Shown here one piece after another: positions 36,341-41,452 of a DNA stretch of 64,000 bases. The notes under the pieces are model-generated. The model saw nothing but the letters and a program-made list of their open reading frames with translations, did no database searches and was not told the origin of the DNA. The stretch is from a virus (Duplodnaviria; Caudoviricetes), in IMG/VR virus record IMGVR_UViG_3300037418_002116, one strand, 5' to 3'. The first letter of the stretch is position 1, and each line of letters starts with the position of its first letter. The translations under genes and the position numbers were made by a program.

Positions 36341-36545
36341 TGAGAAACACCTTCTTTTTGATGAATTCTTCCATGTCGCCCTGAAATTTCAGGTACACGG
36401 AAATTGGGTATAGGTTTTCGAACCCATGAGCCCGCAGTCGAATGGTTTCTTTGTCATAGTCGATGATCGCCTTGACCTTGTGTCCATCGATTTTGTAGAG
36501 TCGTTCGACATTATTTTTCTCTTCCGAGATAACAACGAACGACAT
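36330..36545 (-). CDS. Hypothetical protein
   Basis: TGATG-coupled to upstream ORF. Confidence 0.55.
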   Translation of the reverse strand: MSFVVISEEKNNVERLYKIDGHKVKAIIDYDKETIRLRAHGFENLYPISVYLKFQGDMEEFIKKKVFLNGH

Positions 36546-37015
36546 CAGATTCGAGTTCCATCCGGTCGGACCTTCACTCCATCCTTGTCTGTCGGATCAC
36601 ACGGGTGATGGCCCCAGACCGCAAAATATTTGTCTCGCATCAGCTTCTTTCCATTAATCCAAAAAGCCCAACGTCGGGAAGGCTTTCCAGTTATAAGAAA
36701 TGTCCAAGTTCCCGGCAAGACATTTTGCACGGAATGACGAAATTCGGCGGGCCGATACCTGAACATGCCTGCCCGTAGCGTTTCTTTGAAGGAAAATCCC
36801 TCTTTTGGCGTGATCGACACGTCATCATAGCCACCTTTCAGAATAAAGGTGAGAAACCAGTACGGATGATCATGATAGGCCCGATGATCGTCATCACCAA
36901 GCCAATGATGGAGCCGAAGGGAAATGAAGCCGAAATCGAGAACATACCGATAAAAGTACGGACATTCTTTCAGACCGCCCGGCTGTTTCCATGTGAGTTT
37001 GGGAAGAAATCTCAT
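36545..37015 (-). CDS. Cupin-like His-rich protein
   Basis: LRLHHW...D..R.YHDHP.WF.T.ILKGGY...R..A...H.V...TWT..ITG; ATGA overlap. Confidence 0.6.
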   Translation of the reverse strand: MRFLPKLTWKQPGGLKECPYFYRYVLDFGFISLRLHHWLGDDDHRAYHDHPYWFLTFILKGGYDDVSITPKEGFSFKETLRAGMFRYRPAEFRHSVQNVLPGTWTFLITGKPSRRWAFWINGKKLMRDKYFAVWGHHPCDPTDKDGVKVRPDGTRI

Positions 37016-37296
37016 TGATCGCTCTTCGCAAATTCCTTGGCGGCATTGACCCAATAATGACCGGCCATGCCAAGAGTACAAGCGAGAATATTGGCGAGAG
37101 CGTCAAGCTTGCCTTCAATGACAGCCAACTCACGTTTTGTCACTTTGTGCGTGGCAGCGAGTTTGTCCGATGAACGGCACAGATTGACCATTCGAACCCA
37201 GATAAGAGCCTGTGTCTTATCAAACTTCCAACCCGCTGGCGCTGACCACTGTTGCGGTCCACTAAGTGAGTCGATTGTTACTTTCTGGATTTTCAT
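37012..37296 (-). CDS. Hypothetical protein
   Basis: ORF coupled to cupin gene. Confidence 0.5.
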   Translation of the reverse strand: MKIQKVTIDSLSGPQQWSAPAGWKFDKTQALIWVRMVNLCRSSDKLAATHKVTKRELAVIEGKLDALANILACTLGMAGHYWVNAAKEFAKSDQ

Positions 37297-37732
37297 AAAC
37301 AATTAGCCCCGATTCCACATTCTTTCCGTCTATCTGGAACATATCATAAGGAAGCGGATGGTAATTGTCAATATATTTCTCAATATTTTGAGAATCTTTA
37401 CGGACCAGTGCGACAAGTTTGCCGCCCGGTCGTAAAAAGGTAATAGCGTGATCGACGTGGGGGATTGAATTTTTTGGCGGGCACATAAGCACCGCATCGA
37501 ATCGGCCAAGGAAATCCAGTGAACTATATGACATGGAAAGAAAGTCACGGTTGAACACAATGAAGCTATTCCGAAGCTTCATTGCCAGTTCCTTGTTCAG
37601 TTCAACACATGTGACTCGGGCACCAACGGCAACAGCGGCCATCGCAAGATTGCCGCCGCCAGCCGAGGGTTCCAACACTCTGTCATATTTCTGGATACCG
37701 GCAATCTTGACCATTTCATGGGCCAAGAACAT
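37262..37732 (-). CDS. Amino-methyltransferase-like protein with atypical CPP motif IV; start uncertain
   Basis: RVLEPSAGGG.L; CVELN; DFL; FDAVLMCPP; L.PGG.LVAL. Confidence 0.7.
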   Translation of the reverse strand: MFLAHEMVKIAGIQKYDRVLEPSAGGGNLAMAAVAVGARVTCVELNKELAMKLRNSFIVFNRDFLSMSYSSLDFLGRFDAVLMCPPKNSIPHVDHAITFLRPGGKLVALVRKDSQNIEKYIDNYHPLPYDMFQIDGKNVESGLIVYENPESNNRLT

Positions 37733-37755
37733 CGGTGTTTCCGTTGCGGGAAGAT

Positions 37756-38003
37756 TGGTCCGGTGGGAAGGGTTCGAACCCCCGACACCAAGGCTTTCAT
37801 CCGTGTATTCTGCATCATTAAACATTGGAGCTACCATTGTCCTTTGATGCATACATTAAGGAATTACGGACGTTACTAAGTATCATATCGTCATGCAAAG
37901 TGTTGCAACACCTTACATTATTGTTTGACACCGTTGGCATCTTTAGGTTTCCCTTCGGTTCCTTCTTACGGTCCTTGTGCTCTACCAACTGAGCTACCAC
38001 CGG
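37756..38003 (-). tRNA. tRNA-Phe(GAA)-like gene interrupted by a 172-nt structured insert at the 5' side of the anticodon loop
   Basis: CCGGTGG TA GCTC AGTTGGTA GAGC A CAAGG [172 nt] ATGAAAG CCTTG GTGTC GGGGG TTCGAAC CCTTC CCACCGG A CCA; the non-insert parts sum to exactly 76 nt. Confidence 0.8.
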
Positions 38004-38012
38004 ATTACGCTT

Positions 38013-38040
38013 GATATAAGCGAGGATTATTGAATGTCAA
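38013..38040 (-). promoter_or_regulatory. Early promoter for the split tRNA
   Basis: TTGACA-N16-TATATC ending 9 nt before the tRNA 5' end. Confidence 0.75.
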
Positions 38041-38363: not shown

Positions 38364-38585
38364 ATGGCACGATTTAAAGATAAGAAGCTCCAAAAGGTGT
38401 TCGACCTTTACAGCAAGACCCCGCCAACGAAGCGTGGTGATGCTCTCTTGGCCAAATACTATTTCAACGGATTGGAATATCCAAATAAAGAAAACTTAAA
38501 GCCAGAACGAGGCACGTTTGCCTATGCGGCTTGGGCAGCGGGCCACGCACTGGCCAAACAAAGAGAAAAGACACAGAATGAATGA
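38364..38585 (+). CDS. Hypothetical protein
   Basis: SD plus promoter upstream; overlaps next gene. Confidence 0.65.
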   Translation: MARFKDKKLQKVFDLYSKTPPTKRGDALLAKYYFNGLEYPNKENLKPERGTFAYAAWAAGHALAKQREKTQNE

Positions 38586-39402
38586 CTTTCCAGCGATCAT
38601 TGATTTGAGCGGCTATACGGAGAAGATGCGGAAATCTTTTCTGGAAAAGACTTTCTTCCTCACTAAAATTCCAGCAACCGTCTACATGGATTTCGGATGT
38701 GCCGATGGCAGCATGATCGAATTCATGTTCAAGATGTTTCCGGAATATCGATATTTCGGGTATGACAACGATCCGAAAATGATCGAAATGGCAAAGAAGC
38801 TGAACATTCCGAACGCCTTCTTTTCCACGGACTATGACGCAATTGTCAAGGCCATGAACGACTACGATTCACAAAGAAAGACCGAAGGGAAACCACCGGC
38901 CATTCGAGCGGTCATATGTTCATCGCTCATTCATGAAATTTGTTCATATGCGCAACCGGGAAGCATGACGGTGACGCAATTTTGGAATCGAATTCGTTCG
39001 AATTACCATTACGTCTGCATCCGTGACATGGCGATGACGGAGGAAGCCGAAAAATATGATGTCAGCACTCACGACGTTTGGCAGATTGCCAAATTCTTCC
39101 TGAAAAATGAGGATGATGTCTATATCCTTGGAGATTTTCAGAAGAAATATGGGGAAATCACCAAACTAAAGCAGATGGTTCACTTTCTTCTGAAATATCG
39201 GTATAAGAACAATTGGGAGCGGGAGCTAAACGAGAACTACTTGCCGCTCACGGTCGAAAAAATTCTAGAAGAATTTAGTCACAAGGAAATTGTTTATCAG
39301 AACCATTACCTTCTACCATTTTTGAAAGATCGTGTAAAAACCGATTTCAACATCGATCTTAAAGAAGCGACTCACTTGCAATTGATCGTGAAGTTGCGCT
39401 AA
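38578..39402 (+). CDS. Class I SAM-dependent methyltransferase
   Basis: YMDFGCADG...YFGYDNDPKMIEMAK; SSLIHEI. Confidence 0.75.
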   Translation: MNDFPAIIDLSGYTEKMRKSFLEKTFFLTKIPATVYMDFGCADGSMIEFMFKMFPEYRYFGYDNDPKMIEMAKKLNIPNAFFSTDYDAIVKAMNDYDSQRKTEGKPPAIRAVICSSLIHEICSYAQPGSMTVTQFWNRIRSNYHYVCIRDMAMTEEAEKYDVSTHDVWQIAKFFLKNEDDVYILGDFQKKYGEITKLKQMVHFLLKYRYKNNWERELNENYLPLTVEKILEEFSHKEIVYQNHYLLPFLKDRVKTDFNIDLKEATHLQLIVKLR

Positions 39403-39876: not shown

Positions 39877-40100
39877 TGTACCTTTTCCAACTTTGAGAAA
39901 TAAGATCGTTTGGCCAAAATGTCGGTCGAATCTCGATTGATACGTAATACCAATCGAGTGCCAATAGCAGGCAGCGAACGATCAAGTTTACTTAGAAGAA
40001 CATGATCATAGAGAAGATCAATCTTTTCATCCACTGTAAGATCATCTAATTTGAAAATAAATTGATCTAACTTAGGTTTATTTTTTGTAAAAGGCCACAC
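39873..40100 (-). CDS. Hypothetical protein
   Basis: Coupled ORF. Confidence 0.55.
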   Translation of the reverse strand: MWPFTKNKPKLDQFIFKLDDLTVDEKIDLLYDHVLLSKLDRSLPAIGTRLVLRINRDSTDILAKRSYFSKLEKVQ

Positions 40101-40645
40101 TATTCATATCTCCAAAAGTATTCTTCAATCATTGCTTTATGCGTTGGGAAAGCGATTTCCGACTCCCAAGGTGTATCTTTGACCACTACCAGTTCGGTTA
40201 CTTCTGTGTCGTGCGGTAGATTTAGATCAATTTCTATGGGCTGAACCTTGCAAAAAATCAAGTTCACGCCATCGACGGTCACGATGTCCATCAATTCAGG
40301 TCGTGAGACATCGTGACCAGTCTCTTCCCTAACTTCACGAATAATCGCTTCCTGCCACGTCTCGCCAAGGTTCTGAAAGCCGCCCGGTAGAGCGAGCAAA
40401 CCCGAATCAGCCCGACGAACCATCAGCAAGCCCCCGCTTTCATTGGGCACCAAAGCGACAACCACGGGCGCTGGATTGCGGAATTTCGGGAAGCGCTCTT
40501 CAAGTTCATTGACTGCTTCCATCAGCCAATTTTGGAAGGCAAATACCTTGCGAATGTCTTGGAAAATATGGGTTGTGGAACAAAGTTTCAGTTCCTTTCT
40601 ATACCCTTCGTTGATTTCTTCCATGGCTTTTTCATAATTTTTCAT
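40100..40645 (-). CDS. Nudix hydrolase
   Basis: Nudix box GGFQNLGETWQEAIIREVREETGH; LLMVRR; AFPTH. Confidence 0.9.
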   Translation of the reverse strand: MKNYEKAMEEINEGYRKELKLCSTTHIFQDIRKVFAFQNWLMEAVNELEERFPKFRNPAPVVVALVPNESGGLLMVRRADSGLLALPGGFQNLGETWQEAIIREVREETGHDVSRPELMDIVTVDGVNLIFCKVQPIEIDLNLPHDTEVTELVVVKDTPWESEIAFPTHKAMIEEYFWRYE

Positions 40646-41297: not shown

Positions 41298-41383
41298 GTC
41301 GATTCAACAACTTCCATAAACCGTAGGCGACCGCCGCCACGGCAATCCAAAACCAAAACATCTAAGACTCCTTGATTTTGGCG

Positions 41384-41452
41384 AATATGCCACAAATAAA
41401 GTTTAAAGTCAATTGAAAATGTCATTGACTTCTTATACAGAACGATTATATT
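41384..41452. promoter_or_regulatory. Divergent early promoter pair
   Basis: +: TTGACT-N16-TATATT (41425-41452); -: TTGACT-N17-CATATT (41412-41384). Confidence 0.65.

Follow-up and report, generated by a model that had tools for sequence, protein, structure and literature searches.

A tRNA-Phe-shaped RNA domain that is probably part of the 5′ end of a methyltransferase gene in soil T4-like phages

In the stretch of viral DNA analyzed here, referred to as the window (64,000 nucleotides; IMG/VR record IMGVR_UViG_3300037418_002116), a tRNA-Phe cloverleaf split by an insert occupies the minus strand from 38003 to 37756, as read from the sequence and from ARAGORN. The RNA of this element is seen without splicing, a coding signature continuous with the downstream methyltransferase gene runs through it, and it is widely conserved. 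With somewhat better than even confidence, these observations are taken to mean that it is not an interrupted tRNA gene and that a tRNA-Phe-shaped domain is built into the 5′ end of the methyltransferase gene, the same bases supplying both RNA shape and codons. The codon-level comparison likewise makes it fairly probable that the methyltransferase begins within this RNA, the insert and tRNA 3′ half supplying its start and first ∼30–90 residues; that the insert is an intron is very improbable. The features of the window, from the promoter onward, are as follows.

38013–38040, minus strand: sigma-70-type promoter read from the sequence, with TTGACA at 38040–38035, a 16-nt spacer and TATATC at 38018–38013.
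37973–38003, minus strand: tRNA-like 5′ half (acceptor 5′ strand, D arm and CAAGG), non-coding here, from ARAGORN and compensatory changes.
37801–37972, minus strand: insert of 172 nt between positions 31 and 32, with a non-coding structured 5′ part and a 3′ part in which coding would start.
37968–37971, minus strand: 5′ strand (CCGU) of closing helix H1, pairing with 37804–37801, from covariation.
37858–37964, minus strand: helix H2, AAGGAA (37964–37959) with UUCCUU (37863–37858); two compensatory pairs among four sequences.
37954–37945, minus strand: GAAA hairpin.
37879–37941, minus strand: alternative pairing of GGUGUC(A) (37932–37926), with GAUGCC upstream or UGAUACU downstream.
37893–37918, minus strand: hairpin H5, whose 11-bp stem carries a UGCA loop; five compensatory pairs among four sequences.
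37886–37892, minus strand: GACGAUA, present in 10 of 13 loci (absent from L011, L030 and L032).
37811–37851, minus strand: hairpin H8, 7 bp (37851–37845 with 37817–37811), enclosing H9/H10 (37842–37820).
37823–37825, minus strand: likely start AUG, conserved in four long-insert sequences, its U and G paired within H9.
37801–37804, minus strand: 3′ strand (ACGG) of H1, which is also the codon ACG and the first base of GAU.
37756–37800, minus strand: tRNA-like 3′ half, with AUGAAAG (GAA at 37798–37796), variable loop, T arm, A73 and CCA.
37729–37755, minus strand: 27-nt spacer from CCA to the first ATG, coding N-L-P-A-T-E-T-P and the next codon, with no in-frame start.
37262–37825, minus strand: 187-codon open frame; N-terminal tail predicted to be disordered, followed by an M.TaqI/TrmN-like core whose motif IV is CPPK.
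37763–37993, strand not given by the contigs: union of metatranscriptome contigs from runs X10 and X12–X17, all unspliced.

When introns are allowed, ARAGORN reports a tRNA-Phe(GAA) interrupted at 31/32 by 172 nt, and the sequence left on removing 37801–37972, which a sequence-only reading of this DNA had described as an exact tRNA, is itself called as a 76-nt tRNA-Phe(GAA) with encoded CCA. Default ARAGORN and Rfam at its gathering score gave no report across the 64 kb. In the 5′ half, the acceptor strand CCGGUGG leads into a standard D arm and then into CAAGG of the anticodon stem; after the insert come AUGAAAG, CCUUG, GUGUC, the T arm, the acceptor 3′ strand, A73 and CCA. The phage is a T4-like myovirus with baseplate families gp5, gp6, gp8 and gp53 in the window, and blastn against deposited phages returned no matches. 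Relatives were gathered via the downstream methyltransferase, by protein search and contig look-up, and the interrupted cloverleaf lies directly upstream of the methyltransferase in all close relatives obtained in this way. Thirteen distinct loci carry the cloverleaf (the window and 12 others), with the insert at 31/32 in every one and insert sizes of 114–182 nt. Long inserts of 171–182 nt are present in the window, L003, L006, L010 and L011, and short inserts of 114–146 nt in L001, L005, L008, L025 and L004, the last being cut at its 5′ end; the distant members L030, L031 and L032, which were reached through protein clusters, have inserts of 149–158 nt. Pattern scans of viral and metagenome contigs with exon and insert motifs recovered only the L001 contig or false positives in tRNA clusters. 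The element thus described occurs in a group of soil T4-like phages.

Covariation was evaluated in the nine full-length sequences gathered first, the distant L030–L032 having been found later. Standard pairs occupy 188 of 189 cloverleaf pair cells, and compensatory changes are found at 16 of the 21 cloverleaf pairs. The helix that closes the insert, proposed earlier as CCGT/ACGG, covaries in the relatives, where the variants CCGU/ACGG, CCGG/CCGG, CUGG/CCAG and CAGG/CUUG give compensatory changes at two of four pairs in the nine sequences; in L030 and L032 it reads CCCG/UGGG and CCCCG/UGGGG. Helix H2 encloses the 5′ domain of the insert. Both hairpins drawn from the window alone, AAGGTGT with ACACTTT around TGCA (H5) and TGCATCA with TGATGCA (H8), are borne out by the comparison, H8 being kept in relatives with one compensatory pair among the four long inserts. 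The GAAA-tetraloop hairpin is also present, and covariation is silent on it because it is invariant in the compared sequences. For GGUGUC(A), a local hairpin (37941–37927) and a long-range pairing with 37885–37879 are both kept in relatives, the long-range form having three compensatory pairs and two mismatched cells. The additional CCGT/ACGG copies that had been suggested to form a pseudoknot are not maintained, ACGG being AAGG in L003 and CCGU being CCGC in L006 and L010. The retention of pairing through compensatory change in the cloverleaf and in the helices of the insert indicates a real structured RNA under selection and not a dead tRNA disrupted by an insertion, an alternative raised earlier that is also countered by the conservation of the cloverleaf and its presence in metatranscriptome contigs. 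A phage attP site carrying a tRNA 3′ half was considered and rejected, as the 5′ half is present and covarying.

The RNA itself is contained in 15 rhizosphere metatranscriptome runs, of which seven (X10 and X12–X17) were compared with the window. Contigs in these seven runs span 37765–37986, 37765–37967, 37763–37962, 37840–37993, 37807–37993, 37817–37991 and 37819–37986. In X12, X13 and X15 contigs pass from the insert into the 3′ half and include 36–38 nt of the latter, and in five runs the 5′ junction is crossed with 14–21 nt of exon; none of the contigs in the seven runs ends at a junction or extends past the tRNA ends, and a gap between RNA contigs occurs at the CCA end in run X10 only. 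No spliced joints were seen in the contigs of the seven runs, where a 76-nt product would be too short to assemble. Across 19 kb in four runs no other phage transcripts were found, apart from a few chance pieces of 18–33 nt; since only the element is covered, carry-over of DNA is an unlikely source of the contigs, and the split-cloverleaf RNA, judged from contig coverage, is far more abundant or more stable than the phage messages. These contigs give neither strand, exact ends nor amounts, and a minor spliced fraction would be compatible with them.

A promoter of its own ahead of the tRNA, as claimed in the sequence-only reading, is supported by the relatives: TTGACA or TTGACG, a spacing of 16–17 nt and TATNTN recur at the equivalent spot in seven of the eight loci having upstream sequence. 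In the window this promoter ends ∼9 nt before the tRNA 5′ end. A consensus promoter scan of the window did not call it at 38040–38013 because its −10 element lacks the final T.

Gene callers assigned many relatives “too long” methyltransferases, the extensions of which aligned. Upstream of the ACC the methyltransferase frame is open for 28–158 codons in all 13 loci (28–52 in nine loci, 158 in L011, and 65–87 in the three distant loci), with stops in the two other frames 10–36 codons upstream of ACC, and in L011, L030 and L032 the open frame spans the whole element. The codons across the tRNA 3′ half read D-E-S-L-G-V-G-G-S-N-P-S-H-R-T, and of the codons that differ within this half a fraction of 0.39 is synonymous in the methyltransferase frame, versus 0.10 and 0.15 in the others. 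In the 27-nt spacer the corresponding fraction is 0.77 versus 0.11 and 0.01, with variation among CCC, CCT, CCG and CCA for Pro, ACA, ACC and ACG for Thr, and CCG, CCA, CCT and CCC for the following Pro, and with an in-frame 3-nt indel in L006. No ATG, GTG or TTG occurs between the T arm and the motif ETP. An ATG right after ETP in the window, L001, L003 and L004 could give a shorter protein, and in L005, L006, L008, L010 and L011 the first downstream ATG lies 3–8 codons inside the conserved ETPxFLAxEM. The lack of a start codon from the T arm to the motif, together with the late ATGs in five loci, argues that translation must begin upstream, inside the tRNA-like element.

The start codon has no single conserved place across the loci. 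The likely AUG of the window is preceded by a weak Shine-Dalgarno sequence; in the short inserts of L004, L005, L008 and L025 an AUG, GUG or UUG follows (A/G)GGACGAUA, and GACGAUA is there the tail of a Shine-Dalgarno-like (A/G)GGA, 5 nt before the start. The sole in-frame start of L032 is an ATG behind an AGGAG Shine-Dalgarno, 12 nt upstream of the tRNA 5′ end, which would place the whole cloverleaf inside the frame. The tRNA-like fold thus overlaps the apparent translation start, located in the insert or, in L032, upstream of the cloverleaf, and the N-terminal tail encoded by the insert and the tRNA half is presumably translated. A conserved 22-codon upstream frame in the long inserts, the UAA or UGA of which overlaps the main AUG, was given no weight, being broken by a 1-nt indel in L006. 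The earlier hunch of a tRNA–mRNA hybrid holds in part: the insert does appear to carry the beginning of a frame, but that frame belongs to the methyltransferase and not to the proposed ANGVKQ tag.

These findings bear directly on the possibility that the element is an independent, non-decoding tRNA-Phe mimic, perhaps a decoy or sponge charged by PheRS, with the methyltransferase starting downstream and the upstream frame untranslated. Such a mimic would account for a stable, discrete RNA within tRNA-like bounds and for the retention of GAA, A73 and CCA; the ATG right after ETP in the window and three relatives and the disorder of the tail in the AlphaFold model are consistent with it, and T4 offers the example of stable RNAs of unknown role from a tRNA region (PMC3014915). 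However, it does not readily accommodate a pre-ATG spacer that varies like codons and contains an in-frame indel, a first ATG within ETPxFLAxEM in five loci, the L032 start upstream of the tRNA, or a frame left unstopped in 13 loci, and we consider it improbable.

Another alternative is a true intron: a member of a new small class, self-splicing or cut and joined by proteins, would be removed to give a working tRNA-Phe, and the frame would be intron-borne or accidental. Exact excision does yield a perfect tRNA-Phe, the insert is structured and covarying, its site is fixed at 31/32 in all loci, and its last base is G in the 10 of 13 loci with the closest methyltransferases. The joined molecule also has the elongator tRNA-Phe features of cloverleaf, GAA anticodon, A73 and CCA, but lacks a conserved U33, and in the RNA seen the 7-nt anticodon loop is opened by the insert. 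Position 33 is U, A, C or G in the relatives, with G34, A35, A36 and A37 invariant, and all four ordinary tRNAs of G001 (the genome of relative L001) have U33. The proposal of a new intron type made from the sequence is also weakened by the abundance of the RNA in unspliced form and by a conserved frame that crosses the 3′ junction and needs unspliced RNA. We therefore regard an intron as quite unlikely.

The junctions and the database searches are in line with this assessment, and several negative statements of the sequence-only reading are confirmed by them. Rfam searches at E up to 10 on 1 kb gave only a partial tRNA and no intron, ribozyme or tmRNA, and at E up to 5 in six relatives gave only partial or full tRNA matches and no Intron_gpI or ribozyme; with inserts as small as 114 nt, the element is not a group I intron by these measures. 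The U expected at a group I 5′ splice site is missing, as stated earlier, the last base of the 5′ exon being G in 12 of 13 loci and U in L031. The junction geometry consists of the anticodon stem, a bulge of 0–2 nt opposite 7 nt, and a helix of 4–6 bp, and no paired 3-nt bulges 4 bp apart (bulge-helix-bulge) were read from the sequence at the junctions, again in agreement with the earlier account. Neither RtcB nor T4 Rnl1 was found in G001, which is 85% complete, although the Rnl1 control matched no genome and the host may supply RtcB. Group I mapping by eye yields a P3/P7-like pseudoknot for the long inserts, and “GGUGUC-AAA” and “GGGAAACCUAAA” recall the Azoarcus and Anabaena introns; this mapping was rejected, the pseudoknot being absent from the short inserts and there being no P1. 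Also rejected were a hammerhead-like CUGANGA in L003 and L010, which is not kept in the window and sits in a helix strand; alternative splice registers giving U33 or another anticodon, none of which forms a canonical loop in all relatives; and a link to Ro60/Y RNA, no TROVE protein being found in relative G001.

Whether RNA or protein governs the shared bases can be judged from how they change. Base 33 falls at the third place of a codon that reads GAU, GAA or GAC, and the Leu codon in the 3′ strand of the anticodon stem varies among CUU, CUA, CUG and UUA with matching changes in the non-coding 5′ strand that keep the pairs. Amino acids encoded by the T arm and acceptor stem vary freely with base pairing maintained, indicating that RNA dictates the sequence there. 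GAA (never GAG) and ACC-A are found in 13 of 13 DNAs, beyond coding need. Stem changes that are compensated on the non-coding strand and synonymous on the coding strand indicate, as far as comparison of sequences can tell, that both RNA shape and protein are under selection. Residues 1–27, from the insert and tRNA half, are predicted to be disordered, with the fold beginning near TETP in the AlphaFold model, and such a floppy tail may be able to tolerate a sequence dictated by RNA. The same observations speak against a purely protein-coding element, that is, a captured tRNA gene serving as the 5′ part of the methyltransferase, with a shape of no role and an RNA that is a decay-resistant fragment. 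The frame is open throughout and three loci have whole-element open frames, as this would require, but 16 of 21 pairs show the non-coding 5′ half changing in step with the coding strand so that pairing is kept, the T-arm and acceptor pairs survive amino-acid change, and GAA and ACC-A are fixed beyond codon need, making this explanation very unlikely. A tmRNA-like ribosome-rescue RNA, to which a tRNA-like domain split by an insert holding the beginning of a frame had pointed, has next to no probability and is refuted on the defining features tested: neither ARAGORN nor Rfam calls a tmRNA, pair 3:70 is G–C or U–A and not G3:U70, the D arm and anticodon stem are complete (both as noted from the sequence), the frame within the RNA contains no stop, and the ANGVKQ* mini-frame becomes AKGIKQ*, ANGIIQ* or AKGV* in close relatives and is absent from the short-insert relatives.

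The enzyme encoded downstream has a core modeled with a pLDDT of 88.8 that resembles TrmN, M.TaqI, RsmD-like proteins, Trm11 and KsgA/Erm; these structural look-alikes are base amino-methyltransferases acting on nucleic acids, and its relatives in PHROG are methyltransferase domains carried by phage proteins of very large size. A Rossmann fold, motif X (TP) and motif I (EPSAG.G) are present. In N-L-P-A-T-E-T-P the TP corresponds to motif X of M.TaqI-type enzymes, the ETP motif aligning with FPTP or FQTP of relatives without the tRNA, in which 30–50 residues precede it; the ETP stretch is also where PHROG matches start and where the AlphaFold model becomes confident. Motif IV is CPPK instead of (N/D)PP(Y/F/W) and is accompanied by a three-residue deletion, with Cys replacing the catalytic Asn, which suggests that the chemistry or the target of the enzyme has probably changed.

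The spread of the arrangement was examined by searching 1.84 billion cluster representatives, from which 4586 enzyme relatives were obtained and the best 149 examined, each representing one cluster at 50% identity. In 23 of these best 149 representatives the T arm is translated in frame, giving G.S[NSI][PRL]...T (such as GVGGSNPS..T), and the residue at the anticodon spot is Glu; three of the 23 have the D arm in frame as well (SSVGRA). Motif IV is (C/N)PP followed by a non-aromatic residue in all 23, and NPPF in the aligned relatives without the tRNA. The in-frame T arm in 23 distant clusters with an altered motif IV indicates, at the level of sequence, that the link between the tRNA shape and the altered enzyme is old and broad. 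Two further CPP-type relatives have an ATG of their own (MIAATQTP...) and a tRNA 3′ end ∼320 nt upstream, at the contig edge.

The favored reading, a tRNA-Phe-shaped domain within the methyltransferase gene, suggests the following course of events. From the host-type early promoter, host polymerase would make one transcript starting just before the cloverleaf. Translation would start in the anticodon-loop insert, in the window at AUG 37825–37823, which is buried in a hairpin; the ribosome would then read the GAA anticodon as Glu and pass through the T arm and ACC-A before reaching the methyltransferase core. In one fate, the folded cloverleaf would be trimmed like a tRNA, by RNase P at the 5′ end and by 3′ trimming to the encoded CCA, giving a stable 248-nt RNA and a methyltransferase message that has lost its start or its first 30–90 codons. 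In the other, a ribosome would start first and melt the 3′ half, giving full-length enzyme with a disordered tail. The two fates would be mutually exclusive because of the layout, and the pairing of the AUG in H9 in the window would favor folding over translation. We infer from this that the tRNA shape serves as a built-in switch between processing and translation, and that the RNA is a partner of the enzyme, either as its substrate or as an operator mimicking the substrate; the identity of the processing enzymes, possible charging of the RNA with Phe and possible binding between it and the enzyme likewise belong to this model. A counterpoint to the favored reading is that beheading a message by tRNA-type processing is a wasteful layout.

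A further-reaching and more tentative interpretation, possible but doubtful, is that these loci represent an undescribed and widespread class in which a tRNA-Phe cloverleaf lies within the coding sequence of a small methyltransferase, RNA and enzyme forming a dedicated pair for early use. The RNA would then be substrate, guide or operator of a methyltransferase without the canonical catalytic motif, and the pair might be used, for instance, against tRNA-directed host defenses. Literature searches on phage tRNA introns, tRNA-like stable RNAs and tRNA-overlapping ORFs returned no cloverleaf co-coded with a protein. If right, this gene layout falls outside the design of tRNA finders and gene callers alike: in many phage lineages some 70–260 bases would belong both to a complete cloverleaf and to an open frame, each constraining the other. 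It would provide a natural example of translation passing through a tRNA fold, a transcript with mutually exclusive tRNA-type processing and translation, and a naturally occurring “tRNA scaffold” conferring high stability on the RNA inserted in it, and it would point to a use of a tRNA-Phe look-alike together with an altered methyltransferase early in infection. It would also serve as a warning that phage “intron-containing tRNAs” may be something else.

Among known systems, tmRNA (SsrA) similarly unites a tRNA-like and a message-like part in one RNA, in which the ends form the tRNA part and a structured insert begins the frame. The present element differs in having a Phe anticodon, a full D arm and anticodon stem and no G3:U70 alanine identity, and its frame is the 5′ end of a ∼190-residue enzyme continuing past the CCA rather than a short tag with a stop. 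Group I introns occur in tRNA anticodon loops, as in cyanobacterial tRNA-Leu and Azoarcus tRNA-Ile, and share with the inserts described here a structured sequence in a bacterial-type anticodon loop, ending in G in 10 of 13 loci. In contrast to those introns, which interrupt the anticodon or follow it, the inserts here lie at 31/32 behind a 5′ exon with G, not U, as its last base in 12 of 13 loci; they are 114–182 nt long, match nothing in Rfam, remain unspliced in the RNA seen and appear to be read as codons. Mimicry of tRNA in mRNA leaders is known from the E. coli thrS operator, and tRNA-like structures are known from plant viruses; in thrS the tRNA-like fold lets a tRNA-handling protein control its own message. 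Like an operator of the thrS type, the present fold lies in cis at or near a translation start, but it is a complete cloverleaf with CCA inside the coding sequence and is seen as a separate stable RNA, its role as an operator being putative. Finally, phage T4 produces RNAC and RNAD, stable RNAs from its tRNA region whose role is unknown (PMC3014915). Like the split-cloverleaf RNA, they are small and stable, come from a T4-type phage and are associated with tRNA genes; they show no sequence match to it, and the present RNA differs in overlapping a protein gene.

The methyltransferase encoded downstream of the tRNA-Phe-shaped element differs from relatives without a tRNA in motif IV:

37262-37726, minus strand: methyltransferase whose motif IV reads CPPK.

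Relatives without a tRNA carry NPPF and three further residues where the window methyltransferase shows CPPK. The motif IV aromatic residue is absent in all 23 tRNA-linked clusters among the 149 best cluster representatives of 4586 relatives, indicating that loss of the canonical catalytic motif accompanies the link to the tRNA. On two more distant contigs (L021:1-9 and L023:1-22) a tRNA 3' end lies at the contig edge, ∼320 nt upstream of a methyltransferase that is of the CPP type and has its own ATG.

Two further features lie in the insert:

37941-37879, minus strand: alternative pairing of a GGYRUC segment.
37886-37818, minus strand: second frame of the long inserts, beginning GAUAUG.

The GGYRUC segment can pair either with an upstream GAUGCC, which is invariant, or with a downstream strand, which covaries; the two folds are mutually exclusive, making a switch possible. 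The second frame encodes a conserved 22-residue peptide in the long inserts (M-I/V-L/F-S-N-V/I-R-N...SSNV), and its stop, UAA or UGA, lies three bases past the main AUG (AUGUUUAA). Such an arrangement could couple termination to reinitiation. Alternatively, the second frame could be a relic of the single frame found in short inserts; in one relative locus, L006, it is disrupted by a 1-nt indel.

Contigs from six of the seven rhizosphere metatranscriptome runs (the exception being X14) share two differences from the window, which at the RNA level are G to A at 37871 and A to G at 37918. Because both contig bases preserve pairing and are those found in close relatives, the differences look like a strain variant, and RNA editing is disfavoured on the same grounds. 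Separately, two contigs (runs X16 and X17) match the window briefly at 36448-36474 and 41367-41385; their sequence between and flanking these matches is unrelated to the window, and they probably derive from another organism.

The neighbouring genes are as follows:

38518-39402, plus strand: second class I methyltransferase, 294 aa, divergently oriented, weakly matching a PHROG named tRNA methyltransferase.
40100-40645, minus strand: NUDIX hydrolase gene, ∼2 kb upstream of the element.
L003:752-1087 and L006:799-1107: small cREC_REC domain (PF20274) protein, two genes upstream of the element.
36545-37081, minus strand: match to a PHROG annotated as cysteine dioxygenase (E 5.6e-35).

The second class I methyltransferase adjoins the element in relative loci L003 and L006 as well. 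No counterpart of the cREC_REC protein of at least 50 aa was seen in the window. The cysteine dioxygenase-type gene is uncommon cargo in a T4-like phage.
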